DNA of 64,000 bases from NCBI GenBank assembly GCA_046155885.1, contig JBJXFU010000013.1, forward strand, positions 1,070-65,069. Reading direction: 5' to 3'. The notes beneath the pieces were generated by a model. The model ran no database searches. It saw nothing but the letters and a program-made list of their open reading frames with translations, and was not told the DNA's origin. Of the stretch, positions 1,524 through 23,997 are shown piece after piece; the first letter of the stretch is position 1, and the number at the start of each line of letters is the position of its first letter. The DNA comes from Paracoccaceae bacterium. Its GTDB lineage: Bacteria; Pseudomonadota; Alphaproteobacteria; Rhodobacterales; Rhodobacteraceae. The position numbers were made by a program, and so were the translations under genes.

Positions 1524-1524
1524 G

Positions 1525-5035: not shown

Positions 5036-5075
5036 GTGGCGCCTCGTTCGGTTGATTCCCGGGGCTTCGCGCCCG

Positions 5076-5104
5076 TTGACCCGGGGTGCCGGGCGGCTGA
5101 GAAT
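5076..5104 (+). promoter_or_regulatory. Candidate sigma70-type promoter TTGACC-N17-GAGAAT upstream of the DUF3095 gene
   Basis: TTGACC at 5076-5081, a 17-nt spacer and GAGAAT at 5099-5104, all in the divergent intergenic region. This is a motif match only. Confidence 0.3.
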
Positions 5105-5239
5105 ATAGGGACGCGCGGCCGCCTGAGCCAGAGCGGGGCGACCCGCGCCGCCGCGCCGGGGCCGCGCGGCGGCGCACAACTTCTCACACAGGCGTGTGGG
5201 CGCGACGCGCCGGCTGTGCCGATGCGGCCGGGCTGTGCT

Positions 5240-6415
5240 ATGGCTCGGCGAATGGAACATGGCGACGCCCCGTCCTTTCTGGCCTCGATCCCGGTCTTCG
5301 AGCGGTTCGGCGATGTCGCCGACCCGGCGCGGTACCATCCGTTGCCCAATGGCTGGTCGCTGGCGATGGCCGACGTCGTCGGATCGACCGAGGCGATCCG
5401 GCGGGGGGCCTACAAGAGCGTCAACATGGCCGGCGCCGCGGTGATTTCGGCGGTGTCGAACGGTCTGGGAATCACCGGGCTGCCGTTCATCTTCGGCGGC
5501 GACGGTGCCTTTGTGGCGGTACCGCCGGGCGGCGAGGCGAAGGCGTCGGAAGCACTTGCGGCGATGCGGACCTGGAGCCTGGAGGAACTCGGGCTTGACA
5601 TGCGGGTGGCGCTGGTGCCGGTCGCCGAGATCAGGGCGGCGGGGCAGGACGTGCGGGTGGCGCGGTTCCGCGCGAGTTCCGAGGTGAGTTACGCGATGTT
5701 CTCGGGCGGCGGGGCGAGCTGGGCCGAGCGCGAGATGAAGCTTGGCCGCTTCGCGATAGCGGGCGCGCCGGATGGCACCCGTCCCGACCTGACGGGTCTG
5801 TCCTGCCGCTGGGCGCCGGTGGCCTCGCGGCACGGCGAGATCGTTTCGATCATCGTCATTCCGGTGCCCGGAAGCGACCCGAAGGTGTTCACGGCGCTTG
5901 TCGGCGATCTGGCGAAGCTGTCGGCCGAGGAAGAGCGCGAGGGCAACCCGATTCCCGCCGCCGGGCCGCCTTTGGCGATCAACGTCTGGGGTGTCGGCGC
6001 CGAGGCGCGGCTGACGACCGGGACGCTGGCGCGTCTGATGAAGCGGCTGGGCGTGTGGTTCGCGCTTTGCCTGGTGGTCGTCCTGCACAAGCTGAACGGC
6101 AGCCTCGGGGGGTTCCATGCGCGGCGCTACACGCAGGACATCGCGCTGAACGCCGATTTCCGGAAGTTCGACGACGGGTTGAAGATGACGATCGACGTGA
6201 CGACGGCGCGGCGGAAGCGGATCGAGGAGCGTCTGGCCGCCGCCGAGGCCGCAGGCATCTGCCGCCATGCGGTTCTGGTGCAGGACAGCGCGCTGATGAC
6301 CTGCATCGTGCCGACGCCGCTGGGGCGCGACCACATGCACTTCGTTGATGGCGGGTCGGGCGGCTATGCGGCGGCGGCGACGCGGCTGAAGGCGTCGCTG
6401 GCCGCCGCCCCCTGA
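5240..6415 (+). CDS. DUF3095-family protein (uncharacterised, nucleotide-cyclase-like N-terminal motifs)
   Basis: 391 aa: MARRMEHGDAPSFLASIPVFERFGDVADPARYHPLPNGWSLAMADVVGSTEAIRRGAYKSVNMAGAAVI...IFGGDGAFVAVPP. This matches my recollection of DUF3095 architecture and length. ATG 5252 is the alternative start. Confidence 0.8.
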   Translation: MARRMEHGDAPSFLASIPVFERFGDVADPARYHPLPNGWSLAMADVVGSTEAIRRGAYKSVNMAGAAVISAVSNGLGITGLPFIFGGDGAFVAVPPGGEAKASEALAAMRTWSLEELGLDMRVALVPVAEIRAAGQDVRVARFRASSEVSYAMFSGGGASWAEREMKLGRFAIAGAPDGTRPDLTGLSCRWAPVASRHGEIVSIIVIPVPGSDPKVFTALVGDLAKLSAEEEREGNPIPAAGPPLAINVWGVGAEARLTTGTLARLMKRLGVWFALCLVVVLHKLNGSLGGFHARRYTQDIALNADFRKFDDGLKMTIDVTTARRKRIEERLAAAEAAGICRHAVLVQDSALMTCIVPTPLGRDHMHFVDGGSGGYAAAATRLKASLAAAP

Positions 6416-6529: not shown

Positions 6530-8422
6530 ATGACCGGCGGCGGCGATCTTCTGCGGATCGAGGACCTGAGCGTGTCGTTTTCGCTGCTTGGCGGGCCGCT
6601 TGACGCGGTGCGGGGCGCCAGCCTGAGGGTGCTTCCCGGCAAGGTCACGGCGCTGGTGGGCGAGTCGGGGTCGGGCAAGTCGGTGATCAGCCAGGCGGTG
6701 CTGGGCATCCTGCCGAGGATCGCGACGGCGCGCGGGCGCATCCTGTTTTCGGACCCCGGAAGCGCCGGGCCGCCGACCGACATCCTGGCGCTGCCGACGG
6801 ACGGGCCGGAAATCCGGGCGCTGCGCGGGCGGCGGATCGGGAAGATTTTCCAGGAGCCGATGACCTCGCTGTCGCCGCTGCACACCATCGGCAACCAGAT
6901 CGGCGAGGTGCTGCGCATCCACGAGGGCGCGGGGCGCGAGGAGCAGCGGGCGAAGACCATCGAGATGCTGGGGCTGGTCGGGTTCCCGAACCCGGTGCGC
7001 GCCATCGACATGTATCCCTTCGAGCTTTCGGGCGGCATGCGGCAGCGCGCGATGATCGCCATGGCGCTGATCTGCCGGCCGGCGCTGCTGGTCGCGGACG
7101 AGCCCACGACGGCGCTGGACGTGACGATCCAGGCGCAGATCCTCGAACTGCTGCGCGAGCTGCAGAAGACGCTGAACATGGCGCTTCTGCTCATCACCCA
7201 CGATCTCGGCGTCGTCGCCAACACCGCCGACGAGGTGGTGGTGATCTACCACGGCCAGGTGATGGAGGCGGGGCCGGTCGACGGCATCTTCCGCCGGCCG
7301 GTGCATCCCTATCTGAAGGGCCTGATGGCGGCGGTGCCGCATTTCGACATGAAGCCCGGCGAGCGGCTGAAGTCGCTGCGCGACATTCCGGTGCAGTCGA
7401 CCGAGCTGGTCGGACGGACGGGCGGGGCGCATGTGCCCGGCAAGCTGCCCGAAATGCTGCTGACGGTGCGCGACCTGTCGAAATCGTTCTCGACGCGGAA
7501 ATCCGGCTTCTTCGGGGGGGGACAGGCAGCGAGCGTCAAGGCCGTCGACGGGGTGAGTTTCGATCTGAAGCGCGGCGAGTGCCTGGGGTTGGTGGGCGAA
7601 AGCGGCTGCGGCAAGACGACGGTCAGCAAGATCCTGATGCGCGCGGTGACGCCGGACAGCGGATCGGTGAGCTTCCATGACGAGATGGGTGCCCATGACG
7701 TCCTGGCGGCCGAGGGTTCCGCGCTGCAGTTGATGCGGACCCGCATCCAGATGGTGTTCCAGGACCCGGTGTCTTCGCTTTCGCCCCGGATGACGGTGCA
7801 GAACATCCTGAGCGAGCCCCTGGAAATCCACAGCCGCGGCACGGCGGCCAGCCGCTTCCAGACGGCGGCGGCGCTGATGGACGCGATCGGGCTGGACCGG
7901 CGCTATCTGAACCGTTACCCGCACAGCTTCTCGGGCGGGCAGCGGCAGCGGATCGGGATCGCGCGGGCGCTGGCGCTGGGGCCGGACCTCTTGATCTGCG
8001 ACGAGCCTGTCTCGGCGCTGGATGTGTCGGTGCAGGCGCAGATCCTGAACCTTCTGAAGGACCTGCAGGCCGATCTCGGGCTGACCTATCTGTTCATTTC
8101 GCACAACCTCGCGGTCGTCGACTACATGGCCGACCGGATCGCCGTGATGTACCAGGGACGGATCGTCGAGCTGGCGCCGCGCGAGGTGCTGATGCGGGCG
8201 CCGGTGCATCCCTATACGAAATCGCTGCTCGCGGCGGTTCCCTTCCCCGATCTCGACCGCCCGCTGGACTTCGGAATCATCCGCACCGAGGGGTTGAGCG
8301 GTACGGCGAACTGGCCCGCGGCCTTCGTGGCCGAACGGGACGGACTTGCGGCGATGGACCTTGGCGAAGGGCATCTCGTTCTGGCGCGGCCCGGTTCCGA
8401 TGCGCGCGAACTGCGCGCCTGA
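6530..8422 (+). CDS. ABC transporter ATP-binding protein, fused double ATPase (YejF-like)
   Basis: 630 aa with two full NBDs. First: GESGSGKSV, LSGGMRQR, LLVADEPTTALD. Second: GESGCGKTT, FSGGQRQR, LLICDEPVSALD. Confidence 0.93.
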   Translation: MTGGGDLLRIEDLSVSFSLLGGPLDAVRGASLRVLPGKVTALVGESGSGKSVISQAVLGILPRIATARGRILFSDPGSAGPPTDILALPTDGPEIRALRGRRIGKIFQEPMTSLSPLHTIGNQIGEVLRIHEGAGREEQRAKTIEMLGLVGFPNPVRAIDMYPFELSGGMRQRAMIAMALICRPALLVADEPTTALDVTIQAQILELLRELQKTLNMALLLITHDLGVVANTADEVVVIYHGQVMEAGPVDGIFRRPVHPYLKGLMAAVPHFDMKPGERLKSLRDIPVQSTELVGRTGGAHVPGKLPEMLLTVRDLSKSFSTRKSGFFGGGQAASVKAVDGVSFDLKRGECLGLVGESGCGKTTVSKILMRAVTPDSGSVSFHDEMGAHDVLAAEGSALQLMRTRIQMVFQDPVSSLSPRMTVQNILSEPLEIHSRGTAASRFQTAAALMDAIGLDRRYLNRYPHSFSGGQRQRIGIARALALGPDLLICDEPVSALDVSVQAQILNLLKDLQADLGLTYLFISHNLAVVDYMADRIAVMYQGRIVELAPREVLMRAPVHPYTKSLLAAVPFPDLDRPLDFGIIRTEGLSGTANWPAAFVAERDGLAAMDLGEGHLVLARPGSDARELRA

Positions 8423-8737: not shown

Positions 8738-9946
8738 ATGACCCACAGTTCGGACAACGCCCGCGTTCTCATGTATAGCCACGACACGTTCGGGCTGGGC
8801 CACCTGCGCCGCTGCCGGACCATCGCGCATTCGCTGGTGCAGGAATTCCGGGGGCTTCAGGTCTATATCATTTCGGGTGCCACCATCGCAGGCGCCTTCG
8901 ACTACCGCTCGCGCGTCGATTTCGTGAAAATTCCGAGCGTCATCAAGCTGAGGAACGGCGAATACACGTCGATGAAGCGGCATATCGACCTGGGCGAGAC
9001 GCTGAAGATGCGCTCGTCGATCATCCGCAATGCCGCCGAGAGCTTCCAGCCCGACATTTTCATCGTCGACAAGGCCCCCCTCGGCCTGAAGGGCGAAGTC
9101 GAGGAGACGCTGCACTACCTGAAGGCGCGGGGCACGCGGCTGGTCCTGGGGATGCGCGACGTGATGGACGCGCCGCATCTGCTGGACGCCGAATGGAAGC
9201 GCAACGACGTGCTGAGGAAGGTCGGCCAGCTTTACGACGATATCTGGGTCTATGGCCCGCGCGACTTCTACGACCCGCTGATCGGGCTCGACGTGCCGCC
9301 GCTGGTCCGTGCGAAGATGAGCTTCGTGGGGTTCCTGCAACGCAATGTCTCGCCGTCCGAGATGCCGGCGGTACGGCCGGACAACGCCTATATCCTGGTC
9401 ACCACCGGGGGCGGCGGCGACGGGGCGGAGCTGGTGCACGACGTGATCGCCGCCTACGAGGCCGACCCCGGGCTGATCCATCCGGTGCTGATCGTGCTGG
9501 GGCCCTACATGTCGGCCAAGCAGCGGCGGAAGCTGATGCGCAAGGCCGAGCGAGTGCCGCAGGCCCGGGTGATCGACTTCGAGAGCCGGATGGAGGAGCT
9601 GGTCGCGGGCGCCGCCGGGGTGGTCGCGATGGGGGGGTACAACACCTTCTGCGAGATCCTGTCCTTCGACCGGCCGGCGCTGATCGTGCCGCGCACGACG
9701 CCGCGCGAGGAGCAGCTGATCCGGGCACGGCGGGCGTCCGAGCTGGGGCTGGTCGATATGCTGCTGCCCGAGGAAAGCGCCGAGCCGCTGCGGCTGGCCG
9801 CCGCGCTGAAGGCATTGCCGGGGCGGCCGCGCCCGACCGAGGCGGGATCGGGCCTGAGGCTCGACGGGCTGAACCACATCAACGAGATCGTCCACGGCTG
9901 GCTTGACGTGAGCGAGGCCGACCAGAGGTCGGCGGCGAATAGCTGA
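8738..9946 (+). CDS. GT-B glycosyltransferase with Glyco_tran_28_C-like (MurG-like) C-terminal domain
   Basis: 402 aa. N-terminal SHDTFGLGHLRRC motif and C-terminal GGYNTFCEILSFDRPALIVPR...REEQLIRA motif. Confidence 0.8.
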   Translation: MTHSSDNARVLMYSHDTFGLGHLRRCRTIAHSLVQEFRGLQVYIISGATIAGAFDYRSRVDFVKIPSVIKLRNGEYTSMKRHIDLGETLKMRSSIIRNAAESFQPDIFIVDKAPLGLKGEVEETLHYLKARGTRLVLGMRDVMDAPHLLDAEWKRNDVLRKVGQLYDDIWVYGPRDFYDPLIGLDVPPLVRAKMSFVGFLQRNVSPSEMPAVRPDNAYILVTTGGGGDGAELVHDVIAAYEADPGLIHPVLIVLGPYMSAKQRRKLMRKAERVPQARVIDFESRMEELVAGAAGVVAMGGYNTFCEILSFDRPALIVPRTTPREEQLIRARRASELGLVDMLLPEESAEPLRLAAALKALPGRPRPTEAGSGLRLDGLNHINEIVHGWLDVSEADQRSAANS

Positions 9947-9948
9947 CC

Positions 9949-11190
9949 GTGGCAGGTCCGGCCGGGCGGCTGGTGATCGTGCTGAAGGGTTATCCGCGCC
10001 TGTCGGAGACCTTCATCGCGCAGGAAATCCTGGGGCTGGAGCGGGCGGGGCTGGACATCGCGCTGGTGTCGCTGCGCCATCCGACCGACCGCAAGCGGCA
10101 TCCGGTGCATGACGAGATCAGGGCGCCGGTGACCTATCTTCCCGAGTACCTGTATCGGGAGCCGTGGCGGGCGCTGCGGGGGCTGGCGCATGCGGCGCGC
10201 CGGCCAGGCTTCGGGCGGGCGTTCCACCGGTTCCTGCGCGACTTGCGGCGCGACCCCTCGCCGAACCGGGTGCGGCGGTTCGGGCAGGCGGCGGTTCTGG
10301 TGCGCGAGATGCCGGCGGGGGCGGACTGGCTTTACGCGCATTTCATCCACACGCCCGCGTCGGTGGCCGCCTATGCGGCGCTGCTGACCGGGCTGCCGTG
10401 GAGCGTGTCGGCCCATGCCAAGGACATCTGGACGGCGCCCGACTGGGACCTGAGCGAGAAGCTGGGCGAGATGCGCTGGGCGGTCACCTGCACGGGGACG
10501 GGCCGGGACCGGCTGGCCGGGCTGTCGGGGGGCAAGGCGCCGGTGCATCTGGTCTATCACGGGCTGGACCTTGCCCGGTTCGGGCCGCCGGGGGGGGACC
10601 GGGCGCCGCGTGACGGGTCCGATCCGGGCGATCCGGTGCGGATCATGAGTGTGGGGCGGGCGGTGGAGAAGAAAGGCTTCGGCACCCTGATCGAGGCGCT
10701 GGGGCGCCTGCCGAAGGGTCTCGCCTGGAGCTTCACGCATGTCGGCGGCGGCGATGTCGCGACACTTCGCGCGCGCGCCGGGGCGCTGGGGATGGGGGAC
10801 AGGGTGGTCTGGCGCGGGGCGCTGGACCAGCCGGAGGTGCTGCGGATTTACCGCGCGGCGGATGTCTTCGCGTTGGCCTGCCGGGTGGCCGGGGACGGCG
10901 ACCGGGACGGGTTGCCGAACGTGCTGGTCGAGGCTTCGAGCCAGGGGTTGGCTTGCGTCAGCACCCGGGTTTCCGCCATTCCGGAACTGATCCGCGACGG
11001 CGAAAACGGGCTTCTGGTGCCGCCGGACGATCCCGGCGCGCTGGCCGGGGCGCTGGCGCGGCTGATCGGTGACCCGGCGCTTCGGTCAGCGCTGGGGCGG
11101 GCCGCCGAGGCGCGGGTGCGCAGCGAATTCGACCATGAGGCCGGGCTGCGCCGGCTGCTGGCGCTGTTCAGGGAAAGCCGGATGCCATGA
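9949..11190 (+). CDS. Glycosyltransferase family 4 (group 1, WcaL-like)
   Basis: 413 aa with a GTG start. LKGYPRLSETFIAQEI N-terminus. The C-terminal part has the E-x7-E region (GLPNVLVEASSQGLACVSTRVSAIPELI). Confidence 0.85.
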   Translation: MAGPAGRLVIVLKGYPRLSETFIAQEILGLERAGLDIALVSLRHPTDRKRHPVHDEIRAPVTYLPEYLYREPWRALRGLAHAARRPGFGRAFHRFLRDLRRDPSPNRVRRFGQAAVLVREMPAGADWLYAHFIHTPASVAAYAALLTGLPWSVSAHAKDIWTAPDWDLSEKLGEMRWAVTCTGTGRDRLAGLSGGKAPVHLVYHGLDLARFGPPGGDRAPRDGSDPGDPVRIMSVGRAVEKKGFGTLIEALGRLPKGLAWSFTHVGGGDVATLRARAGALGMGDRVVWRGALDQPEVLRIYRAADVFALACRVAGDGDRDGLPNVLVEASSQGLACVSTRVSAIPELIRDGENGLLVPPDDPGALAGALARLIGDPALRSALGRAAEARVRSEFDHEAGLRRLLALFRESRMP

Positions 11191-12317
11191 GACCCTCGCC
11201 GCGCGTGTTCTTCTATGTCCAGCACCTGCTCGGGATCGGGCACCTCGCCCGGGCGAGCCGGATCGCGGCGGCGCTGGCCGCGGACGGGTTCGAGGTCACG
11301 GTGGTCACCGGGGGCACTCCGGTTCCGGGGTTTCCCGGCCCGGGGGTGGCGCATGTGGCGCTGCCGGAAATCCGGTCGGACGCGGGGTTTACGGGGTTGG
11401 CCGACGGCGAGGGGCGGCCGCTGACAGATGCCTTCCGGGAGATGCGGCGCGACCTGCTTCTGGCGGCCTTCCGCGCGGCGGCGCCGGATATCGTGGTGAC
11501 CGAGGCCTTCCCCTTCGGCCGCCGTCAGGTGCGTTTCGAGCTTCTGCCGCTGATGGAGGCGATCCACGCCTTGCCCTCTCGCCCGCGCGTGGCGGCATCG
11601 GTGCGCGACATCCTGCAGGAGCGCGCCAAGCCCGGCCGCGACGAGGAAAGCGCGTCGCTGGCGCGGACGTACTACGACTGCATCCTGGTGCATGGCGATC
11701 CGTCCTTCGCGCGGCTGGAAGAGACCTTTCCGCTGGCCGCGGGGCTGGCGGACCTGGTGGCCTATACCGGCCTCGTGGCGGCGCCGCTTCCCCCGCCCGC
11801 CGAAGACCGCTTCGACGTCGTCGTCTCGGCGGGCGGGGGTGCGGTGGGGGGGGCGCTGTTAGCGGCGGCGGCCGAGGCGGCGGGGCGGCTTCCCGGGTCG
11901 GGAAGCTGGGCGCTGATCGGCGGCACCAACCTGCCGCAGGCGGAATACGACGCGCTGGCGGCGCGGCTGCCCGGGAACGCCGCGCTGTTCCGGTTCCGGC
12001 GGGACTTCGTGGGGCTGTTGCAGAATGCGCGGCTATCGGTGTCGCAGGCGGGCTACAACACCGTCTGCGACATCCTCGGCGCGGGATGCCGCAGCGTGCT
12101 GGTGCCCTTCGCCGCGGGCGGCGAGACGGAGCAGGGCGCGCGGGCCGAGCGGCTGGCGGCACTGGGGCTGGCGCGGGTGGTGGAGGAGGCGCGGCTGAGC
12201 GGCCCGGCGATGACCGGGGCGGTGGCGGCAAGCCTTGCCGGGCCGGCGCCGCCACCGTCGCCGCTCGACCTGGGCGGGGCGGCGGCGACGGCGCGGCTGC
12301 TGCGCGAGCTTCTGTGA
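11187..12317 (+). CDS. GT-B glycosyltransferase, paralogous architecture to 8738..9946
   Basis: 376 aa with VQHLLGIGHLARA and AGYNTVCDILGAGCRSVLVPF...ETEQGARA motifs. Its start overlaps the upstream stop by 4 nt. Confidence 0.8.
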   Translation: MRPSPRVFFYVQHLLGIGHLARASRIAAALAADGFEVTVVTGGTPVPGFPGPGVAHVALPEIRSDAGFTGLADGEGRPLTDAFREMRRDLLLAAFRAAAPDIVVTEAFPFGRRQVRFELLPLMEAIHALPSRPRVAASVRDILQERAKPGRDEESASLARTYYDCILVHGDPSFARLEETFPLAAGLADLVAYTGLVAAPLPPPAEDRFDVVVSAGGGAVGGALLAAAAEAAGRLPGSGSWALIGGTNLPQAEYDALAARLPGNAALFRFRRDFVGLLQNARLSVSQAGYNTVCDILGAGCRSVLVPFAAGGETEQGARAERLAALGLARVVEEARLSGPAMTGAVAASLAGPAPPPSPLDLGGAAATARLLRELL

Positions 12318-12449: not shown

Positions 12450-15182
12450 ATGTCGGCGCGAGGTGCGCTGAGGGCGATGGAACCCCGGCTTTCGCGATAT
12501 ATCTGGCGGCACACGAGCGCCCAGCAGCTCTGGATCCTGCTGGTCGTGCTTTTGTCGATGGTCCCCTATTTCCTGTCCTTCGACCTGCCCAAGCAGATCG
12601 TCAACGGCCCGATCCAGGGCGACGGTTTCGACACGCCGGACGCCACGCAGCTGTTCATGACGATCGAGTTCGACCTGCCGCTTGTCGGCCATGTGATGCT
12701 GTTCCCGGGCCTGCCGCTGGAACGGATGCCGACGCTTTTCGCGCTGAGCGGAGTGTTCCTGGGCCTCGTCATCATCAACGGGCTCTTCAAGTACTACATC
12801 AACACCTACAAGGGCCGGCTGGGCGAACGGCTTCTGCGGCGCATCCGGTTCGAGCTTGTGGACCGCATCCTGCGGTTTCCGCCGGAGACCTTCAAACGGC
12901 TGAAGGGTGCCGAAATCTCGAGCATGGTGAAGGACGAGGTGGAGCCGCTGGGCGGCTTCACGGGGGATGCCTTCGTGGTGCCCGTGCAGCTTGGCGGGCA
13001 GGCACTGACGGCACTGGTCTTCATCTTTGTGCAGAGCTTCTGGCTGGGCGTCATCACGGCGGCGCTGGTCAGCGTGCAGGCGCTGATCATTCCGCGCCTC
13101 AGGCGGCGGCTTCTGGTGCTGGGCCGGCAGCGGCAGCTTACGGCGCGCGAGCTTGCCGGGCGGGTCAGCGAGATCGTCGAGGGGATCGGCACGATCCGCG
13201 CCTACGACACCTCGAACTTCGAGCGGGCGGACGTGGCGGGGCGGCTGGGGCTGATCTTCAAGATCCGTTACGACATCTACCAGTGGAAGTTCCTGGTGAA
13301 GTTCATCAACAACTTCCTCGCCTCGATCACGCCGTTCCTGTTCTACAGCGTCGGCGGTTATCTGGCGCTGCGCGGCAACCTGGACATCGGGCAGCTGGTT
13401 GCGGTGATCGGGGCCTACAAGGACCTGCCCGGCCCGCTGAACGACCTGATCAGCTGGGACCAGAACCGGCAGGACGTGCAGGTCAAGTACACGCAGGTGG
13501 TCAACCAGTTCGCCATCGACGGAATGATCGACCCGGCGGTTCAGGCGCCGGATCTGTCGGGTGAACGCCAGCCGCTCGACCACCCGCTGGCCACGGTGTC
13601 GCTGGGTGTGGACGACGACAGCGGCAGCACGATCCTCGACCGGGTGAGTGTGCAGATCTCGCCGGGCGAGCTGGTGGCGCTGACCAGTGACACGCCAAGC
13701 GCCGAGATTTTCGCCGAGACGGTGGCGCGCGGCGTCTGGCCGGCCCGGGGCAGGATCACGGTGGGCGAACAGGATGTGCTTTCGCTGCCGGATTCGCGGG
13801 TGGGGCGCGGCATCACCTATCTGGCGCCGGAGCCGTTCCTGTTCTTCGGGACGCTGCGCGACAACCTCGTCTACGGGCTGAAGCACGCGCCCCTGTCGGG
13901 GCCGGAACGCGACGGGGACGCGCTGAAGCGCCATCAGTGGGCGGTGCGCGAGGCGCGGCTGGCGGGAAACCCCGAGCTCGACCTTGCCAGCGACTGGATC
14001 GACTACCGGGCGGCCGGGGCGACCGGGCCTGCGGATTTGTTCCCGGCGCTGGTGCGTGCGCTTGATGCGGCGCTGCTGAGCGACGACGTGATCGACTTCG
14101 CGAAGCGGTCGACGATCGTGCCCGAAGACCAGGCCGAGCTGGCGGCCGACCTGGTCGGGCTTCGGCAGGCGGTGCGGGACGAGCTTGCCGCGCGAAAGCT
14201 CGGCCAGATGATCGCGGCCTTCGAACCGGAAGCCTACAACGGCGAGGCGACGGTGGGCGAGAACCTGCTGTTCGGCAACCCGACCGGCCCCGAGCTGCAG
14301 TTCGAATCGATTGCCGCGAACGCCCACTTCCGCGCCTCGCTCGGGCAGGACCTGGCTTCGGACCTGTTTTCGACGGGCTACCAGATCGCCGAGCAGGCGA
14401 TCGAACTGTTCGCCGGGCTGCCGCCGGACCATCCGTTCTTCGAACAGCTGACCTTCATGTCGTCAGAGGATATCCCGCGCTATCAGAAGCTGTTGCAGGG
14501 GCTGAAGGGACGCGGCTTCGCCGAGGCGACCGAGGCCGAGCGGATCGACATCATCCGCCTGAGCTTTGCCTATATCGAAACGCGCCACCGCTTCGGGCTG
14601 CTGACGCCCGAGCTTCAGTCGCGCATCGTCGCGGCGCGCAGGCGCTTCCATGCGGAGCTTCCCGGGGACCTGCGCGGCGCCATCGAGCCTTACGATCCGG
14701 AACGCTTCATCGCCTCGGCCAATATCCTGGACAACGTGCTGTTCGGCCGCATCAGTCACCGCTACGCCAACGAGGTGGGAACGGTGCACGAGGTGATCCG
14801 CGATCTTTTCCGCACGCGGGGGCTCTACGAACGGGTGTTCTCGGTCGGGCTCGGCTATCATGTCGGGTCTTCGGGCAAGCGGCTGACCTCGGTGCAGCGG
14901 CAGAAACTCGGACTGGCCCGCGCGCTTTTGCGGAAGTCGGAGTACTATGTGTTCAACCGGCCGCTTTCGGCGGCGGATCAGGGCAGCCAGGACCGCGCCA
15001 TGCGCAATGTCATCGACCATGTGCGGCGCGACGGGGCGGATCCGGCGGTGATCTGGGTTCTGTCGAATCCGTCGATGGGGGTGGTCTTCGACCGGGTGAT
15101 CACGTTCAAGGGAGGCACGGTCGCCGACGACCGCAGGCGCATGCATGCCGGTGGCGGCGTTCACGACACGGGTACCGCCTGA
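12450..15182 (+). CDS. ABC type-I-exporter-like protein (6-TM domain + NBD-like domain with all catalytic motifs degenerate and a ~270 aa insertion)
   Basis: Six hydrophobic segments lie in the first ~330 aa. The Walker A position reads ALTSDTPSAEIF, with no GxxGxGK[ST]. The Q-loop reads YLAPEP, the signature reads LTSVQRQK, and Walker B reads YYVFNRPLSAAD. Start is at 12450 (MSARG) or 12477 (MEPRLS). Confidence 0.8.
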   Translation: MSARGALRAMEPRLSRYIWRHTSAQQLWILLVVLLSMVPYFLSFDLPKQIVNGPIQGDGFDTPDATQLFMTIEFDLPLVGHVMLFPGLPLERMPTLFALSGVFLGLVIINGLFKYYINTYKGRLGERLLRRIRFELVDRILRFPPETFKRLKGAEISSMVKDEVEPLGGFTGDAFVVPVQLGGQALTALVFIFVQSFWLGVITAALVSVQALIIPRLRRRLLVLGRQRQLTARELAGRVSEIVEGIGTIRAYDTSNFERADVAGRLGLIFKIRYDIYQWKFLVKFINNFLASITPFLFYSVGGYLALRGNLDIGQLVAVIGAYKDLPGPLNDLISWDQNRQDVQVKYTQVVNQFAIDGMIDPAVQAPDLSGERQPLDHPLATVSLGVDDDSGSTILDRVSVQISPGELVALTSDTPSAEIFAETVARGVWPARGRITVGEQDVLSLPDSRVGRGITYLAPEPFLFFGTLRDNLVYGLKHAPLSGPERDGDALKRHQWAVREARLAGNPELDLASDWIDYRAAGATGPADLFPALVRALDAALLSDDVIDFAKRSTIVPEDQAELAADLVGLRQAVRDELAARKLGQMIAAFEPEAYNGEATVGENLLFGNPTGPELQFESIAANAHFRASLGQDLASDLFSTGYQIAEQAIELFAGLPPDHPFFEQLTFMSSEDIPRYQKLLQGLKGRGFAEATEAERIDIIRLSFAYIETRHRFGLLTPELQSRIVAARRRFHAELPGDLRGAIEPYDPERFIASANILDNVLFGRISHRYANEVGTVHEVIRDLFRTRGLYERVFSVGLGYHVGSSGKRLTSVQRQKLGLARALLRKSEYYVFNRPLSAADQGSQDRAMRNVIDHVRRDGADPAVIWVLSNPSMGVVFDRVITFKGGTVADDRRRMHAGGGVHDTGTA

Positions 15183-17497: not shown

Positions 17498-18367
17498 GTG
17501 GCCTTTGCGCCGCGCGGGTCGGGGCTTTCCGGCGTGACTGCCGACCCGGTCATCCGGCTACGCTTCTGGGGAACGCGGGGCAGTCTTCCGGTGTCGGGCG
17601 AGGCGTTCCGGCGCTTTGGCGGCGCGACGATGTCGATCGAGATGCGCTGCGGGCCGGTCTGCCTTCTGTTCGACGCGGGATCGGGCGTCGGGCCCGCCGG
17701 AAAGGCGCTGGCGGCGGAAGGCGTGACCCGGCTGCATCTGCTGTTCACGCATTGCCACTACGACCACATCCTGGGATTTCCGTTCTTCGCGCCGCTCTAC
17801 AACCCGGCGGCGGAGATCGACTTCTGGTCGGGTCATCTTTTCGGCACGACGACGACGCGCCAGATGATCGGCGACTTCATGGGGCCGCCGTTCTTTCCGG
17901 TGGGGCCGGACGTCTGCCCCGCCAGGCTGCGCTTCCACGACTTCGAGCCCGGGGCCGTGCTTGAACCCGCGCCGGGGCTCAGGCTTCTGACCCGGCGGCT
18001 CAACCATCCGGGCGGGGCGGTGGGGTACCGGGTGGAATGGGGGGGCAAGGTGGTTTGCATCGTCACCGACACCGAACACGAGCCGGGGACGCTCGACCCG
18101 ACGGTGATCGAACTGATCCGGGGCGCCGATCTCTTCATCTATGACGCGAGCTATCTGGATTCCGAAATGGCGCGCTACAAGGGCTTCGGGCATTCGACCT
18201 GGCAGCAGGCGGTTCGTCTTGCCGAGGCGGCGGGGGTGGCGCGGGCGGGGATGATCCACCACGCGCCCTGGCGGACCGATGCCGAGCTTGCGGCGATCGA
18301 GGCCGAGGCGCGGGCGATCCTGCCGGGCGCCTTCGTGACGGCGGACGGGATGACGGCGGAGGCTTGA
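17498..18367 (+). CDS. MBL-fold metallo-hydrolase (possible phosphodiesterase)
   Basis: 289 aa with LRFWGTRGSLP and the HxHxDH motif (THCHYDHILGF). GTG start at 17498; GTG 17534 is an alternative. Confidence 0.85.
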   Translation: MAFAPRGSGLSGVTADPVIRLRFWGTRGSLPVSGEAFRRFGGATMSIEMRCGPVCLLFDAGSGVGPAGKALAAEGVTRLHLLFTHCHYDHILGFPFFAPLYNPAAEIDFWSGHLFGTTTTRQMIGDFMGPPFFPVGPDVCPARLRFHDFEPGAVLEPAPGLRLLTRRLNHPGGAVGYRVEWGGKVVCIVTDTEHEPGTLDPTVIELIRGADLFIYDASYLDSEMARYKGFGHSTWQQAVRLAEAAGVARAGMIHHAPWRTDAELAAIEAEARAILPGAFVTADGMTAEA

Positions 18368-18378: not shown

Positions 18379-19149
18379 TCAGGCGGGGGCGGCAAGACCG
18401 GGAAGCGCCGCAGCGGGAAGCCAGCTTGCGCCGGCGCGGCGGGTGGCGACGAAAAGGTCCTCCAGAAAGGCCCAGGCGGCTTCGTCATGCACGAGATGAT
18501 GGGTGAGCAGGCCCGCGACCCCGGCCGCGCCGCCGCGCAGGGCGCCAAGGCGGGCGACGAGTTCGGCCACAAGCCGCGCCGGTTCGCGGCCGCCCCGGGT
18601 GCCGCGCCAGTCGATCAGGTCGGCATGGGTGTTCACGAAGGGCAGCAGCTGGTCCGGAGGTTCCGGCCCGAAGGTGGACAGGGCGCGGAAGCCGAGCGCG
18701 GGAAGCGGCGGCAGGAGGCCCGGGTCGATGCGGTTCCAGGGGGGGACAAGAAGCGGGATGGCCTGGGCGGGGAAGAGGTGCGCGAGGCGGGCACGGCCCC
18801 GCGACAGCTCGCCCAGGATGGTCGCGGCGGGACGTTCGGGGCCGAGTTCGGCGGATTTCCGGCCCGGCGGGGCGTGATTGGCGTGGCGCCAGCCGTGGAC
18901 CGCCACCGAAACGCCCGGCGCGGCGGCGAGGCGGGCGGCGAGGGCTTTGCCCGTCGTGGCGGGGATGACCGCGAGGGTTACCGGAACGGCGGCCGCCGCG
19001 CTGAGCGCGAGCAGCCGGTCGAGCGCGGGGGTGGGCAGGGCCGCGTCGTCGTCGCGCAGCCACAGGGGTGCGGCGCGGCCGGTTTCCGACCAGGCCGCGA
19101 GTTCGGCCGTGAGCGGGGCGAAGGGGTCAGGTTGGGTCAGTCCGCCCAT
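18379..19149 (-). CDS. NodB/DUF2334-like polysaccharide deacetylase family protein
   Basis: 256 aa with LWLRDDDA, VAVHGWRHANH and LVPPWNRI motifs. It overlaps the upstream GT gene by 13 nt. Confidence 0.6.
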   Translation of the reverse strand: MGGLTQPDPFAPLTAELAAWSETGRAAPLWLRDDDAALPTPALDRLLALSAAAAVPVTLAVIPATTGKALAARLAAAPGVSVAVHGWRHANHAPPGRKSAELGPERPAATILGELSRGRARLAHLFPAQAIPLLVPPWNRIDPGLLPPLPALGFRALSTFGPEPPDQLLPFVNTHADLIDWRGTRGGREPARLVAELVARLGALRGGAAGVAGLLTHHLVHDEAAWAFLEDLFVATRRAGASWLPAAALPGLAAPA

Positions 19150-20240
19150 CCCAGTGCCCCGGAGAGGATCTGGCGCAGCCGGGCCGCCGCCGCCCCGATG
19201 CTGTGGCGCGCCAGCACACGCTCATGCGCGGCCCGGCCGAGGCTTTGGCGCAGGGCGGCATCGCGGATCAGCCGGGCGAGCGCCCGGGCGTAAAGTTCCG
19301 GTTCGCGTTCCGGCACCAGAAGCCCGGTTTCGCCGTCCCGCACCACTTCGGGCACGCCGGCGGTGGCCTGGGCGACGACGGGAAGCCCGGCGGCCTGCGC
19401 CTCGAGATAGGCGAGCCCGTAGGCTTCGCCGAAGCCGGGCCAGGCGTAGAGGTCGGCATCCGCCAGCGCCCGGGCGACGGCGGCGGGGTCGGCCAGCCCG
19501 GCCCATCCGACGCGCTCCGCGACCGGGGCGAAGGCGCGCCGGACGGTATCGGCGGCGGGCCCGTCGCCCAGAACCTCCAGCCGCCAGTCGAGGTCGGCGG
19601 GAAGCCGGGCAAGGGCGTCGGCGAGAAGGCTGTAGCTGTCGGCCTTTTCGCCGGCCCGCATCATCGCCACGCTGACCAGCCGGACCGGACCGGTCCGCCC
19701 CGCGCGGTCGGGTGCGGGGAAGCGGCCCGGCTCGACAAAGGGTTCGATCATCGCGGTGCGGGCGCCGGGCAGGGCGAAGTGGATGCCGTCGCGGTCGCGC
19801 CGGGTCAGGCAGAGGTTCACCGCCGCCCGTCCGAGGCCGGCCACGACCTGCCGCTGCGTTTCGGCCCAGATGCTTTCGTTCCGGCGGGCGGAGTAGGAGC
19901 TTTCGGCGGTGACATAGGGCAGGCCGAAGCGGGCGCAGAGCGGCGGGCCGATGAGGTCGGGGGACTTGTAGTAGGGGTGGTAGGCGAACCACAGGTCGGG
20001 CGAGCCCTGGTGCTTCCAGGCGTCGGTCAGCCGGGCGACCTCGGCCTCGGCGCGGGCGGCGATGTCGGCCGCGGCGGCGAAGTCCTGGGGTTCGGGAAGG
20101 CGGGCGCGGAGTTCGGAGGCGAGCGTAACGTCATGGCCGGCAAGGCCGAGCGCCGAGATGAACTGACGCGCCATCAGCCGGTCCCCCGAGGGGACCGGAT
20201 GGCCCGGAGGCTTCAGGGGCGCGTAGAAGGCGATCTTCAT
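19137..20240 (-). CDS. Glycosyltransferase family 4 (group 1)
   Basis: 367 aa with an MKIAFYAPLKPPGHPVPSGDR N-terminus and a C-terminal EAYGLAYLEAQAAGLPVVAQATAGVPEVV E-x7-E motif. Confidence 0.88.
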   Translation of the reverse strand: MKIAFYAPLKPPGHPVPSGDRLMARQFISALGLAGHDVTLASELRARLPEPQDFAAAADIAARAEAEVARLTDAWKHQGSPDLWFAYHPYYKSPDLIGPPLCARFGLPYVTAESSYSARRNESIWAETQRQVVAGLGRAAVNLCLTRRDRDGIHFALPGARTAMIEPFVEPGRFPAPDRAGRTGPVRLVSVAMMRAGEKADSYSLLADALARLPADLDWRLEVLGDGPAADTVRRAFAPVAERVGWAGLADPAAVARALADADLYAWPGFGEAYGLAYLEAQAAGLPVVAQATAGVPEVVRDGETGLLVPEREPELYARALARLIRDAALRQSLGRAAHERVLARHSIGAAAARLRQILSGALGWAD

Positions 20241-20418: not shown

Positions 20419-23400
20419 TCAGCCCTCCCCGGCCAGGAGCGCCGCGTTGCCGCCCGAGGCGGTGGTATCGACGCTCAGGTGCCGTTCGATCCTGAGCCGC
20501 GGTCCCATGTCAGCCTCGGTCAGGAGCGGCAGGATCGGGCCTTGCCGGCGCGCCAGGGCGTGCCGGGCCGAGGCGAGGCTGTCGCGATCCGCCCAGAGGG
20601 CGACGGCGTCGATGCCGCGCAGGGTTTCCAGCGCCGCGTCGGGCAGCGCCCCGTCCACCGTGCCCTCGCCTTTCGCCCCGGGGGCCACGCGGACCGCCGC
20701 GCAGCCGTTGTCGCGCGCGATCCCGGCCTGGCGGTTCGCCGCCTCGGCGGAGGGACCGAGGCAGAGGACAAGGCCGCGCCCGTGTTCGGTCAGGCGGTTC
20801 GATTCGCCGGTGGGTCCGGGCAGTTGGCGGCTGACGAGCGCCGCGCCGGACGGCCGCAGGGCGCGGTCGATCATGCGCTGCACCCCGGCCGGGTCCGCCG
20901 GCGGCGCCGCGCCGGGCGCCGGCCCCTCGATCCGCGCCGCCGCCGCGAAGCGCGCCACGAAGCCCGGTCCGCCGGCCTTGGGCCCGGTGCCGGAGAGCCC
21001 TTCGCCGCCGAAGGGCTGGCTGCCGACAACGGCGCCGATCTGGTTGCGGTTGATGTAGAGGTTGCCGGCCTTCAGCCGGCCGACGACATGGTCGACGCGG
21101 TCGTCGATGCGGCTGTGCATGGCGAAGGTCAGGCCGTAGCCGGTGGCGTTGATCGCGTCGATCACCTTGTCGAGATCGCCCGCCCGGTAGGTGGCGACGT
21201 GCAGGACGGGGCCGAAGACCTCGCGTTCGAGTTGGGCAATGCCCTTCACGCGGATGACCGCGGGCCCGACGAACCAGCCCCGGGCCGGTGCGGCGAGTTC
21301 CGTCAGGACGCGCCCTTCGGCCCTTGCGGCGGCGATGTGGTCCGCGATCCCCTGCCGTGCCGTCTCGCCGATCAGCGGGCCGATGTCGGTTGCCGGGTCC
21401 CAGGGATCACCCAGCGCCAGTTCCTGCATCGCGCCGGAGAGCATCCTGAGCATGCCATCGGCCACGTCCTCTTGCAGGTAGAGCATCCTCAGCGCCGAGC
21501 AGCGCTGGCCGGCCGACTGGAAGGCCGAGGCGACGATGTCGCGCACCGCCTGTTCGGGAAGGGCGGTCGAATCGACGATCATCGCGTTCAGCCCGCCGGT
21601 TTCGGCGATCAGCGGCGCCCAGGGTGCGGCCGAGGCGGCCATCGCGCGGTTGATCCGCTGTGCCGTGGCGGTCGACCCGGTGAAGACGAGGCCGTCGATT
21701 CCTGGGTGCTCCGCCAGCGCCGCGCCGACGGTGCCGCCGCGGCCGGGGACGAGCTGCAGGGCGGCAGGGGGCACGCCCGCTTCGTGCAGGAGGCGCACCG
21801 CCAGCGCCGCCGTCAGGGTTGTCGCCTCGGCCGGTTTGGCAAGGACGGCGTTGCCGGCGGCAAGCGGGGCGGCGACCGATCCGGTGAAGATCGCCAGCGG
21901 GAAGTTCCAGGGCGATATGGCGGCGATCCGGCCCCTTGCCGGGGCGTCGAGATCGAGCGCCCGGGCGGCGTAGTAGCGCAGGAAGTCCACCGCCTCGCGC
22001 AGTTCGGAAACGGCATCGCGGGGGGTCTTGCCGGCTTCGCGGGCGAGAAGCGCGAAGAACTCGCCGGCATTGGCCTCGCAGAGGTCCGAAGCGCGGGTCA
22101 GGGTCGCTGCCCGTTCGGAGGGGGCGGCAGTCCAGGGCCGGGCGGCGGCGACGGCGGCGGCGACGGTTTCGGCCGTCGCCTCGGAGTAGCTTCCCACGAC
22201 ATCGTCAGGATCCGAGGGCGAGCGGACCTCGACTTGCGGGCCTTGCGGGGGTGCCGACCCGGCGACCGCGGGCCCCGCTGTCCAGCGGGCCCGCCGGAAC
22301 GGCGAGCGCGCCGCGTCGAAGGCCGCGAGCCCCGTGGGGTTGGCGATGTCCCAACCGGCCGCGTTCGTCCGCTCGGGCGCGAAAAGCGCCGCGGGCGCCT
22401 TCACCGCGCGGTTCGGGCCGGCCGCAGCGAGCGCCACGAAGGGATCGGCCGCGACCCGGTCGGCGGGCACCGAGGGATCGACGATCTGGTTCACGAAGGA
22501 GCTGTTGGCGCCGTTTTCGAGGAGCCTGCGTACCAGATAGGCCAGAAGGTCGCGGTGCGCCCCGACCGGGGCGTAGATGCGGCAGCGGGTCTTGTTCTGC
22601 GTCAGCACGATGTGATGCAGCCGCTCGCCCATCCCGTGAAGCCGCTGGAACTCGTAGGCCGAGCGGTCGGCCTCGAGGGCGAGGATCGTTGCGACGGTAT
22701 GGGCGTTGTGGGTGGCGAACTGGGGGTAGATGCGGTCGGTCATGCCCAGAAGCCTGCGGGCGTTGCAGATGTAGGCGACGTCGGTGGCGGGTTTGCGGGT
22801 GAAGACCGGGAAATCCGGCAGCCCCTCGACTTGCGCGCGCTTCACCTCGCTGTCCCAGTAGGCGCCCTTGACGAGGCGGACCATGATGCGGCGGCCGAGC
22901 CTGCCGGCAAGCGCGTAGAGCCAGTCGATGACCGGCCCGGCGCGTTTGCCGTAGGCCTGCACGACGACACCGAACCCGTCCCAGCCGGCGAGGGCGGGAT
23001 CCGACAGGACCGCTTCGATGACGTCGAGCGAGAGGTCGAGCCGGTCGGCCTCTTCGGCGTCGATGTTGAAGCCCATGCCGGCGCGGGCGGCCATCCGGGC
23101 GAGTTCGCCGACGCGCGGGACCAGTTCGGCCATGACGCGGGCGCGCTTGGCGGTTTCATAGCGGGGGTGGAGCGCGGAGAGCTTTACCGAGATGCCGGGA
23201 TTGGCGCGGATGTCCGATCCCCGGGCTTCGGCGGCGATGCGGTCGATCGCGTTGGCGTAGGCCTGGTGGTAGGTCTGGGCGTCCCCGGCGGTCATCGCGG
23301 CCTCGCCCAGCATGTCGTAGGAAAAGGTGTAGCCCTCGGCCGCGCGGTCGGCGCCGCGGCGCACCGCCTCGCCGATGGTCTGGCCGAGGACAAACTGCCG

Positions 23401-23892
23401 GCCCATTTCCTTCATGGCGCGGGCCACCGCGGCGCGGATCACCGGCTCGCCCAGGCGGCGCACGAGACCGTGCAGGACCGAGGCCATGCCTTCGCCGTCC
23501 TGCAGGACCTTGCCGGTCAGCATCAGCGCCCAGGTCGAGGCGTTGACGAGGGGTGAGGACGAACGGCCGAGGTGTTCGCCCCAGGACGACGGCGCGATCT
23601 TGTCCTCGATGAGCGCATCCATGGTTTCGGTGTCAGGCACGCGCAAGAGCGCCTCGGCGAGGCACATGAGCGCCACGCCTTCGCGCGACGACAGGCCGTA
23701 TTCGCCGAGGAAGACCTCCATCATCCCGGGCCGCGCGTCGGAACGGATGGCGTGCACGAGGCCGGCGGCGCGGGCCACGGCCGAAAGACGAGTGGCTTCG
23801 TCGGGGGCATGGCGGGAAAGCCCGGCGATGACCGCCTCTTCCGGCGCCCGGTGCGCCGCGGCGATCGCGTCCCGCAGGGTTTTGTCGGTCAT
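20419..23892 (-). CDS. putA: Bifunctional proline dehydrogenase / L-glutamate gamma-semialdehyde dehydrogenase PutA (no N-terminal RHH DNA-binding domain)
   Basis: 1157 aa from ATG 23892 (MTDKTLRDAI). PRODH and ALDH domains are recognisable (ISPWNFPLAI, ETGGLNAMIVD, GQRCSA). The track ORF extension to 24315 is not coding-like. Confidence 0.95.
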   Translation of the reverse strand: MTDKTLRDAIAAAHRAPEEAVIAGLSRHAPDEATRLSAVARAAGLVHAIRSDARPGMMEVFLGEYGLSSREGVALMCLAEALLRVPDTETMDALIEDKIAPSSWGEHLGRSSSPLVNASTWALMLTGKVLQDGEGMASVLHGLVRRLGEPVIRAAVARAMKEMGRQFVLGQTIGEAVRRGADRAAEGYTFSYDMLGEAAMTAGDAQTYHQAYANAIDRIAAEARGSDIRANPGISVKLSALHPRYETAKRARVMAELVPRVGELARMAARAGMGFNIDAEEADRLDLSLDVIEAVLSDPALAGWDGFGVVVQAYGKRAGPVIDWLYALAGRLGRRIMVRLVKGAYWDSEVKRAQVEGLPDFPVFTRKPATDVAYICNARRLLGMTDRIYPQFATHNAHTVATILALEADRSAYEFQRLHGMGERLHHIVLTQNKTRCRIYAPVGAHRDLLAYLVRRLLENGANSSFVNQIVDPSVPADRVAADPFVALAAAGPNRAVKAPAALFAPERTNAAGWDIANPTGLAAFDAARSPFRRARWTAGPAVAGSAPPQGPQVEVRSPSDPDDVVGSYSEATAETVAAAVAAARPWTAAPSERAATLTRASDLCEANAGEFFALLAREAGKTPRDAVSELREAVDFLRYYAARALDLDAPARGRIAAISPWNFPLAIFTGSVAAPLAAGNAVLAKPAEATTLTAALAVRLLHEAGVPPAALQLVPGRGGTVGAALAEHPGIDGLVFTGSTATAQRINRAMAASAAPWAPLIAETGGLNAMIVDSTALPEQAVRDIVASAFQSAGQRCSALRMLYLQEDVADGMLRMLSGAMQELALGDPWDPATDIGPLIGETARQGIADHIAAARAEGRVLTELAAPARGWFVGPAVIRVKGIAQLEREVFGPVLHVATYRAGDLDKVIDAINATGYGLTFAMHSRIDDRVDHVVGRLKAGNLYINRNQIGAVVGSQPFGGEGLSGTGPKAGGPGFVARFAAAARIEGPAPGAAPPADPAGVQRMIDRALRPSGAALVSRQLPGPTGESNRLTEHGRGLVLCLGPSAEAANRQAGIARDNGCAAVRVAPGAKGEGTVDGALPDAALETLRGIDAVALWADRDSLASARHALARRQGPILPLLTEADMGPRLRIERHLSVDTTASGGNAALLAGEG

Positions 23893-23903
23893 GGTTTCCT
23901 CCG

Positions 23904-23937: not shown

Positions 23938-23997
23938 TCGGTGTTCCCGAAGACAGGATTCCTGCGGGCGTTCCGCCCGGAGAACGCGACTTGGAAA

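Follow-up and report, generated by a model that had tools for sequence, protein, structure and literature searches.

The DNA analysed here, referred to as the window, was a 64,000-nucleotide stretch of contig JBJXFU010000013.1 from a Paracoccaceae bacterium. It carried a gene for a protein with the fold of a type IV ATP-binding cassette (ABC) exporter (the pseudo-ABC exporter), which was preceded by three glycosyltransferase (GT) genes and followed by the gene of a small cyclic-nucleotide-binding (CNB) protein (Table 1). The exporter-like open reading frame (ORF) was intact and of coding-type composition, with a GC content of 0.68, 0.43 and 0.87 at the three codon positions, and its product was identical to an NCBI-annotated protein (P0001) from a Paracoccaceae metagenome-assembled genome (MAG). 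Since most orthologues begin with MEPRL, the ATG at 12477 (M10) is the more likely start.

Table 1. Features of the pseudo-ABC exporter locus and of the rest of the window, in window positions (aa, residues of the pseudo-ABC exporter; TMD, transmembrane domain; NBD, nucleotide-binding domain; AF2, AlphaFold2; MBL, metallo-beta-lactamase; PHA, polyhydroxyalkanoate).
Feature	Position	Strand	Basis or remark
Pseudo-ABC exporter ORF	12450-15182	+	910 aa from ATG 12450; profile matches, AF2, Foldseek
TMD, six long helices (aa 10-365)	12477-13544	+	Pfam ABC_membrane E 2e-23; AF2 secondary structure
TM1-TM2 loop (aa ~61-90)	12630-12720	+	Predicted beta-hairpin
N-terminal NBD half (aa 366-481)	13545-13892	+	ABCB1 NBD alignment
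Walker A remnant (aa 406-423)	13665-13718	+	ABCB1 NBD alignment
Q-loop remnant (aa 455-465)	13812-13844	+	ABCB1 NBD alignment
Insert, ~275 aa (aa 482-754)	13893-14711	+	hhalign, AF2
C-terminal NBD half (aa 755-895)	14712-15134	+	NCBIfam, ABCB1 alignment
Signature remnant LTSVQ (aa 809-823)	14874-14918	+	Family alignment
Walker B remnant VFNRP and D-loop SAAD (aa 832-844)	14943-14981	+	Family alignment
H-loop remnant WVLSN (aa 867-875)	15048-15074	+	Family alignment
Stand-alone CNB protein, 154 aa	15219-15683	+	Pfam cNMP_binding PF00027 E 3e-18; 36 nt downstream of the ABC-like gene
Class III adenylate/guanylate cyclase (start approximate)	3692-5040	-	Pfam Guanylate_cyc E 6e-8
DUF3095 protein, possibly cyclase-like	5246-6415	+	Pfam E 4e-122
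Metallophosphoesterase, 571 aa	15622-17337	-	Pfam; flanks CNB gene
MBL-fold hydrolase	17498-18367	+	Pfam
GT28-C/MurG-like glycosyltransferase	8738-9946	+	
GT4 glycosyltransferase	9949-11190	+	
GT28-C-like glycosyltransferase	11187-12317	+	
Weak polysaccharide-deacetylase-like ORF	18379-19149	-	
Further GT4 glycosyltransferase	19137-20240	-	
Opp/Gsi-type importer permease	525-1697	-	
SBP_bac_5 binding protein of importer	1525-3603	-	
Fused two-NBD ATPase, GsiA/OppDF-type	6530-8422	+	
PutA	20419-24315	-	
MbnB/TglH/ChrH-family enzyme and DoxX membrane protein	28329-30906	-	Pfam E 3e-103 (MbnB/TglH/ChrH)
Threonyl-tRNA synthetase	32203-34239	-	
PhaC PHA synthase	36427-38235	+	
Glutamine synthetase	43845-45230	-	

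Pfam ABC_membrane (PF00664) matched residues 98-320 of the pseudo-ABC exporter with 83.8 bits (cut-off 28). NCBIfam exporter models (MsbA, CydD/C, HlyB/PrtD-type and PCAT-type) matched it in two pieces, at residues ~95-480 and ~754-895, and the ~275 residues between them were covered by no ABC model. Pfam ABC_tran reached only 13.9 bits (cut-off 25). The NBD scaffold, with its RecA-like core and helical subdomain, was recognisable from NCBIfam and PDB profiles over residues ~370-480 and ~754-904. The AF2 model of the whole protein had a predicted local distance difference score (pLDDT) of 89.6, a predicted template-modelling score (pTM) of 0.85 and six long transmembrane (TM) helices. Its best Foldseek matches were type IV ABC exporters, namely ABCB1, TmrAB, TM287/288, MsbA and PCAT1. 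We conclude that the product is a protein of the type IV ABC-exporter fold. The loop between TM1 and TM2 was predicted to form a small four-stranded beta-hairpin on the periplasmic side and was preceded by an invariant NGPIQGxGF; this is an unusual extracytoplasmic feature in exporters of this kind.

The register of the ATPase motifs was fixed by a residue-by-residue alignment of the family profile to ABCB1. The Walker A sequence G-x4-G-K-S corresponded to S413..A418-E419, with Ala418 in place of the Lys and Glu419 in place of the Ser/Thr, and the P-loop of the window protein carried a one-residue deletion. The Q-loop Gln was replaced by Pro (P460), the Walker B Asp-Glu by N836-R837 and the H-loop His by S872. 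The equivalent of LSGGQ was L-T813-S-V-Q816, where only the Leu and the Gln were retained. The D-loop was kept (SAAD; canonical SALD). A pattern search for G....GK[ST], LSGG[QE] and hhhhDE found none of these anywhere in the protein, which failed every sequence criterion of a working ABC ATPase, at Walker A, Q-loop, signature, Walker B and H-loop alike. A first-pass annotation of this DNA had described all five motifs as degenerate, and the ABCB1-anchored alignment bore this out, except that the reported Q-loop change from Gln to Ala was one residue out of register. The same annotation had argued that the loss was no compositional artefact. We agree, since the fused ATPase in the window had normal Opp-type motifs (GESGSGKS/GESGCGKT, LSGGM/FSGGQ, LLVADE/LLICDE and THD/SHN), and a compositional cause was rejected. 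With Walker A lacking its Lys, Walker B its Asp-Glu, the Q-loop its Gln and the H-loop its His, and with no partner half-transporter encoded nearby (see below), ATP hydrolysis by the pseudo-ABC exporter is very unlikely, as the annotation had proposed in calling the protein non-hydrolytic.

More than 4000 relatives were returned by a word-indexed protein search, and a scan of one genome per species found a relative in at least 588 species. These included Rhizobium leguminosarum, R. etli, Sinorhizobium fredii, S. medicae, Mesorhizobium spp., Agrobacterium spp., Brucella daejeonensis and Loktanella. The best 120 homologues (59-100% identity, about 905 aa) came from Rhizobium, Sinorhizobium/Ensifer, Phyllobacterium, Hoeflea, Pararhizobium, Cypionkella and Paracoccaceae. 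When plasmids were searched with tblastn, the gene was found in 262 records, including pSymB of S. meliloti (61% identity). The reading frame was intact in at least 80 genomes.

The same substitutions were common to the 120 close homologues, which were compared at 59-78% identity. At the Walker A Lys position Gly (76 of 120) and Ala (40) were found, and at the Ser/Thr position Glu (83) and Asp (37). The Q-loop Gln position was mostly Ser (80), with Pro and Ala in 11 sequences each. The Walker B Asp was Asn in all 120, the catalytic Glu was Arg (107) or Lys (11), and the H-loop His was mainly Ser (96) or Ala (14). The signature read LT-x-x-Q, with its Gln invariant (120 of 120), and the D-loop Asp was present in 119. 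The median ratio of nonsynonymous to synonymous divergence (dN/dS; Nei-Gojobori method, 100 orthologue pairs) was 0.12 for the TMD, 0.14 for the N-terminal NBD half, 0.12 for the insert and 0.13 for the C-terminal NBD half. Only pairs with a dS of 0.1-0.6 were used, as those with saturated dS inflate the ratio to 0.18-0.33. Given the similar values in all four regions, purifying selection acts on the pseudo-NBD and the insert as strongly as it does on the TMD. In identity the TMD was the most conserved part, with a mean of 75% to 80 orthologues.

The loss of the motifs is thus an old, selected state and not decay. A decaying pseudogene or a lineage-specific relic has practically no chance of being the explanation and is refuted by the intact frames, the dN/dS of 0.12-0.14, the conserved replacements and the strict synteny. 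The first-pass annotation had likewise held that the gene was not a pseudogene. It had suggested looking for shared substitutions among orthologues, which would point to selection, and for normal motifs, which would point to lineage-specific decay. The former were found throughout the close clade; the latter expectation failed there, but in branches at 44-51% identity a Lys or Arg in Walker A and the catalytic Glu persist.

These branches consisted of MAGs of Rhodospirillaceae, Dongiaceae and Kiloniellaceae. Among 120 of their sequences, the Walker A Lys position held Lys (60) or Arg (31), the Ser/Thr position Glu (77) or Asp (35) and the Walker B Asp position Asn (108). Glu was found at the catalytic position in 89, and the H-loop position was Gln in 40 and His in 36. 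In this branch the carboxylate that coordinates Mg appears to have shifted out of Walker B, where it is the Asp, to the Ser/Thr position of Walker A. Many of the 66 full-length representatives had G-S-G-K-[DE] with a Walker B N-E, and a few were near-canonical (P0210 with GSGKST and ILILDEA; P0129 and P0261 with GSGKS). LSGGQ occurred in none of the 66 when aligned. The degeneracy is therefore graded across the wider family. From these graded states we infer that the insert and the shifted-carboxylate site came first and that loss of the Lys, the catalytic Glu, the His and the Gln followed in the window clade.

The same relatives bear on the possibility that the protein is an ATP-dependent exporter with a non-canonical Mg-ATP site, in which a carboxylate stands at the Walker A Ser/Thr position and an Arg at that of the catalytic Glu. 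Retention of Lys/Arg in 91/120 and of Glu in 89/120 sequences of the 44-51% branch is consistent with such a site. So are the GSGKS/T plus DE of a few relatives and the paired change of Ser/Thr to Glu/Asp and of Walker B Asp to Asn, which looks remodelled rather than destroyed. In the window clade, however, the Lys became Gly or Ala in 116/120 and the catalytic Glu became Arg or Lys in 118/120. Neither the His of the H-loop nor the Gln of the Q-loop was among the commonest residues at its position in the close homologues, the signature was LT-x-x-Q, and the P-loop of the window protein is one residue short. We know of no ABC ATPase that works without all of these residues, and consider this explanation improbable.

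The second peculiarity of the protein lies within its NBD. An insertion of ~270 aa had been noted in the first-pass annotation and was confirmed, at about 275 aa between the Q-loop and the signature. A motif normally found after the Q-loop, T-x-x-[DE]-N-L-L-[FY]-G, was present three times, at residues ~467, ~601 and ~760. The corresponding repeat units (residues ~455-587, ~588-744 and ~745-830) each began with a strand and the helix with this motif and ended in a signature-like helix. Profile-profile comparison of family sub-alignments with hhalign matched unit 1 (residues 455-595) to unit 3 (residues 750-835), which is the canonical helical subdomain with the signature helix, with 96.4% probability (E 1e-9). 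Unit 2 (residues 590-752) matched unit 3 with the same values, and units 1 and 2 matched each other with 90-92% probability. In the comparison of the units, the signature helix SVQRQKLGLARALL aligned with AELAADLVGLRQAV and PELQSRIVAARRRF. The AF2 secondary structure repeated one order three times over: strand, short helix, strand, helices, long helix, strand. The insert blocks had a pLDDT of 93-97 in the whole-protein model, and the insert modelled alone had one of 89. The insert model contained about 12 short helices and 3 short strands and no coiled coil, and a Foldseek search of the PDB with the insert-only model gave no fold match (best E 0.14, TM-score ~0.1).

On the strength of the unit matches and the repeated order of elements, we interpret the NBD helical subdomain as tandemly triplicated: by its sequence profiles the insert adds two degenerate copies of this subdomain, which runs from the Q-loop strand to the signature helix. 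It has diverged past fold-level recognition and is not an imported domain. The annotation had spoken of an inserted helical domain; it is not an unrelated one. A search with the insert alone (residues 480-760) against 1.84 billion cluster representatives gave 728 matches at E <= 1e-3, 437 of them at E <= 1e-10. The best matches listed were mostly proteins of 830-1085 aa with the insert at the same place. A large insertion after the Q-loop and before the signature is also found in SMC/Rad50/RecN and in UvrA. The likeness is confined to the insertion site: in those soluble, active ATPases the inserted part is a coiled coil or a domain that binds DNA or UvrB, whereas here a helical subdomain is duplicated in a membrane protein.

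The downstream partner was essentially a single CNB domain. Its phosphate-binding cassette (GEIAIL...RTATV), carried in GEIAILCDVTRTATV, was intact, with the G-E ... R-[ST]-A residues present. In 80/80 genome loci the next gene downstream, on the same strand, encoded a homologue. The gene was also found there in Ensifer, Hoeflea, S. meliloti (UniProt Q92VD3) and two Rhodospirillales-type contigs at 45% identity. Moreover, all nine of the family members of 1030-1085 aa that were tested had a cNMP_binding domain fused at the C-terminus; named members of the fusion clusters came from Bosea, Thalassospira, Hyphomicrobiales and other Alphaproteobacteria. Fusion and invariant adjacency are strong genomic evidence that the ABC-like and CNB proteins work together. 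They considerably strengthen the suggestion in the first-pass annotation of a link to the adjacent cyclic-nucleotide (cNMP)-binding protein; its further suggestions, that the protein is a scaffold or channel and that regulation passes through the inserted helical domain, are hypotheses.

A CNB protein genetically tied to a type IV ABC exporter is also a feature of TIGR03896 (cyc_nuc_ocin) with TIGR03796/TIGR03797. The CNB protein matched TIGR03896 weakly (E 9e-12, 45 bits, cut-off 161), and the ABC-like protein scored 79 and 57 bits with the exporter models (cut-offs 853 and 709). With scores so far below the NCBIfam cut-offs, membership of the NHLP-type bacteriocin exporter system was rejected. 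As far as we know, the TIGR03796/TIGR03797 exporters transport peptides and combine a peptidase domain with canonical ATPase motifs.

A canonical half-transporter encoded elsewhere might supply the missing catalytic site in an obligate heterodimer, as in TM287/288, TmrAB and BmrCD. Heterodimeric type IV exporters in which one site is degenerate are a common, well-studied kind (PMC7756269), and they keep one consensus site as well as an ATP-binding Walker A in the degenerate one (PMC7756269). TM287/288, TmrAB, BmrCD, CFTR and MRP1 resemble the window protein in that selection maintains substitutions of their catalytic Glu and in their H-loop and signature, and their degenerate site is structural or regulatory. 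Unlike in TM287/288-type exporters, both sites of the presumed homodimer would be degenerate in the window protein, and its Walker A Lys is gone. No second exporter-type TMD gene was found within 10 kb in 80/80 loci, in a search that covers nearby genes only, whereas the genes of known pairs are normally adjacent. The Walker A/B/H-loop side and the signature side are both degenerate, so that each composite site would contain a defect. A heterodimer is accordingly very improbable in our estimate. As no second exporter-type TMD gene lay nearby, we took a homodimer as the default assumption.

The fused ATPase was considered as a candidate for energising the dead exporter in trans and was set aside, being of the GsiA/OppDF type with its own importer genes. 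In Ensifer, S. meliloti and Rhodospirillales-type clusters it lay in an operon with SBP_bac_5 and two permeases, and the window has those genes too.

Possible sources and sinks of a cyclic nucleotide were encoded around the locus. The class III cyclase shared 59% identity with the one encoded at the corresponding point of the S. meliloti pSymB cluster. Its gene lay upstream of the DUF3095 gene and divergent from it, and the two co-occurred in 17/80 loci. In several Rhodobacterales the DUF3095 gene was directly upstream of the ABC-like gene. The cyclase region was overlapped by a spurious plus-strand ORF of 870 aa (3803-6415), of which only the last ~389 aa, the DUF3095 protein, are real. The ADVVGST and FGGDGA of DUF3095 lined up with the two metal-binding Asp motifs of the cyclase in a weak hhalign match (E 0.038), and some UniRef entries label DUF3095 proteins 'adenylate cyclase'. 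BLASTP of DUF3095 against the cluster cyclase gave no match, nor did single-sequence and profile searches against PDB sequences. DUF3095 is possibly a cyclase, which we treat as a lead only. The metallophosphoesterase and the MBL-fold hydrolase are possible cNMP phosphodiesterases of the same module. The MBL protein matched NF041851 (cyclic nucleotide-degrading phosphodiesterase) weakly, with 54.5 bits against a cut-off of 400, and RNase Z models scored similarly.

The three upstream GT genes were separated by gaps of 2 and -4 nt, and the last of them lay 132 nt from the ABC-like gene. Given the close spacing of the GT genes, the three GTs, the ABC-like gene and the CNB gene probably form one operon. 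The upstream GTs were also present in the clusters of Ensifer, Hoeflea, S. meliloti and the Rhodospirillales type. Genes within 10 kb were counted at the 72 of the 80 loci that had full flanks. The three upstream GTs were present at 61-63 of these (about 85%), the fused Opp/Gsi-type ATPase at 56, SBP_bac_5 at 50, the MBL-fold gene at 43, a further GT4 at 42 and the metallophosphoesterase at 17. Some versions of the cluster included genes for a polysaccharide lyase, a nucleotide-sugar dehydrogenase or epimerase and a methyltransferase. The GT cluster probably makes an uncharacterised surface or secreted glycan. As a polysaccharide lyase was encoded in the Hoeflea and S. meliloti versions, the SBP_bac_5 importer may take up a breakdown product of that glycan. 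The SBP_bac_5 protein itself was unusually long (ORF of 692 aa; 633-664 aa in homologues from related clusters).

The rest of the window was chromosomal-type alphaproteobacterial DNA of about 69% GC with several housekeeping genes (Table 1). An enzyme of the MbnB/TglH/ChrH family, which modifies ribosomally synthesised and post-translationally modified peptides (RiPPs), was encoded beside a DoxX membrane protein; the pair may represent a small RiPP or DUF692-type cluster unrelated to the ABC-like gene.

The conserved motif loss and the constant adjacency or fusion of the CNB domain suggest a transporter-like machine that is switched by cAMP or cGMP and is not powered by ATP. The reading we favour, with a probability of roughly one half, is a homodimeric pseudo-ABC exporter with both nucleotide sites dead, whose NBD-like domains are controlled by a cNMP receptor and which acts with the neighbouring GTs. 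The ATP switch, in which ATP closes the NBDs and hydrolysis resets them, would be replaced by a ligand switch. The cluster cyclase would make cAMP or cGMP, which the CNB protein would bind. Placed on the C-terminal side of the pseudo-NBD, the CNB protein would control pseudo-NBD association, which in turn would open or close the TMD pathway via the coupling helices. In MalK, MetN (C2 domain) and ModC, a C-terminal effector-binding domain controls the association of the NBDs, and the fused CNB domain stands at the same C-terminal position. Theirs regulate active importer ATPases, whereas the window system would combine a CNB-type domain with a dead ATPase. As there would be no energy input, movement could only be downhill, with gated release or flipping of a glycoside, an oligosaccharide or a lipid-linked glycan from the adjacent GTs as candidates. 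The enlarged helical region would probably give the CNB protein or the GTs a new surface to interact with. More speculatively, the conserved Glu/Asp of the Walker A Ser/Thr position might pair with the Arg that stands in for the catalytic Glu, in a salt bridge occupying what was once the nucleotide pocket.

The protein might also translocate nothing and serve as a membrane scaffold or signal transducer, its pseudo-NBD recruiting or regulating GTs in response to cNMP or relaying a periplasmic signal inward. All energy-coupling residues are gone and a large, conserved cytoplasmic surface has been gained, as would suit a scaffold. The small, conserved periplasmic beta-hairpin between TM1 and TM2 and the Opp-type importer with an unusually long SBP_bac_5 protein that travels with the cluster could be accommodated in the same way. 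On the other hand, no part of the protein is more conserved than the TMD, with its 75% identity and dN/dS of 0.12. This conservation includes the pathway-lining regions and exceeds the needs of an anchor, and the retained D-loop and NBD core suggest that NBD-NBD dynamics still matter. We judge a scaffold or transducer unlikely on balance.

Several points weigh against a cNMP-switched, ATP-independent translocator. Transport is our inference, and the protein could be a scaffold or signal transducer of the kind just described. The contact between the CNB protein and the pseudo-NBD is proposed solely from gene fusion and synteny. A cyclase was encoded within 10 kb at only 17/72 loci and DUF3095 at 20/72, so that the source of the cNMP would often have to be encoded elsewhere. 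Nucleotide may still be bound by a remodelled site. Finally, the 44-51% branch has a Walker A of G-x4-G-[KR]-[ED] with a Walker B of N-E, and a few relatives retain GSGKS/T plus DE, from which it follows that the family began with a working, or at least an ATP-binding, site. A fuller version of the favoured reading is correspondingly tentative: the pseudo-ABC exporter would be the first translocator of the ABC-exporter fold to use no ATP at all, switched by a cNMP from a cyclase of the cluster, with the dedicated CNB protein (or, in some lineages, fused domain) driving association of the dead NBDs through the triplicated subdomain and so opening a downhill pathway for a glycoconjugate from the adjacent GTs in rhizobia and marine Rhodobacterales. 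We rate this version as less likely than not.

Among known systems, the type IV half-transporters (MsbA, Sav1866, PCAT1 and the halves of ABCB1) share with the window protein the order of a six-helix TMD and an NBD, the D-loop and the NBD core, and include the best PDB matches. Unlike them, the window protein is without the catalytic residues, has 275 aa inserted and falls below the ABC_tran threshold. CFTR (ABCC7) and SUR (ABCC8/9) are also cases of an exporter fold that does not serve primary pumping, with a large regulatory insertion and a tie to a cAMP pathway. CFTR is under the control of cAMP via protein kinase A and its R domain. These proteins bind ATP, however, and hydrolyse it at one site, they are regulated by phosphorylation or Mg-nucleotides, and there is no kinship with the pseudo-ABC exporter beyond the ABC fold. 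BcsA-PilZ, Alg44 and PelD, which respond to cyclic di-GMP, are alike in logic only: there too, a nucleotide second messenger is sensed by a receptor that is coupled to the membrane part of a cluster for glycan synthesis/export; the messenger (a cNMP here), the receptor fold and the membrane machine all differ.

Source databases name these proteins 'ABC transporter (transmembrane domain-containing / ATP-binding) protein' or 'multidrug transporter'. A search of the full-text literature, excluding most subscription journals, found no paper on the ABC-like family, on DUF3095 or on the S. meliloti pSymB orthologue, and the Clr regulon paper concerns other clusters (PMC5498481). The family is an unusual, conserved one in which three oddities are linked: both nucleotide sites are dead, the helical subdomain is triplicated and a CNB partner is obligate. 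What defines an ABC exporter is the dimerisation of its NBDs under the drive of ATP, and the degenerate sites known to us are always paired with a working site and still bind ATP. If the favoured reading is true, a ligand-gated device can be made out of the conformational machine of ABC proteins. Candidates for a bacterial cAMP/cGMP effector that is non-transcriptional are rare, and this family is one of them. About two dozen adenylate/guanylate cyclases have been reported for S. meliloti, and for the many orphan cyclases of rhizobia this family offers a concrete target, with orthologues in tractable and well-studied organisms such as S. meliloti (pSymB), R. leguminosarum, R. etli, Mesorhizobium and Agrobacterium.

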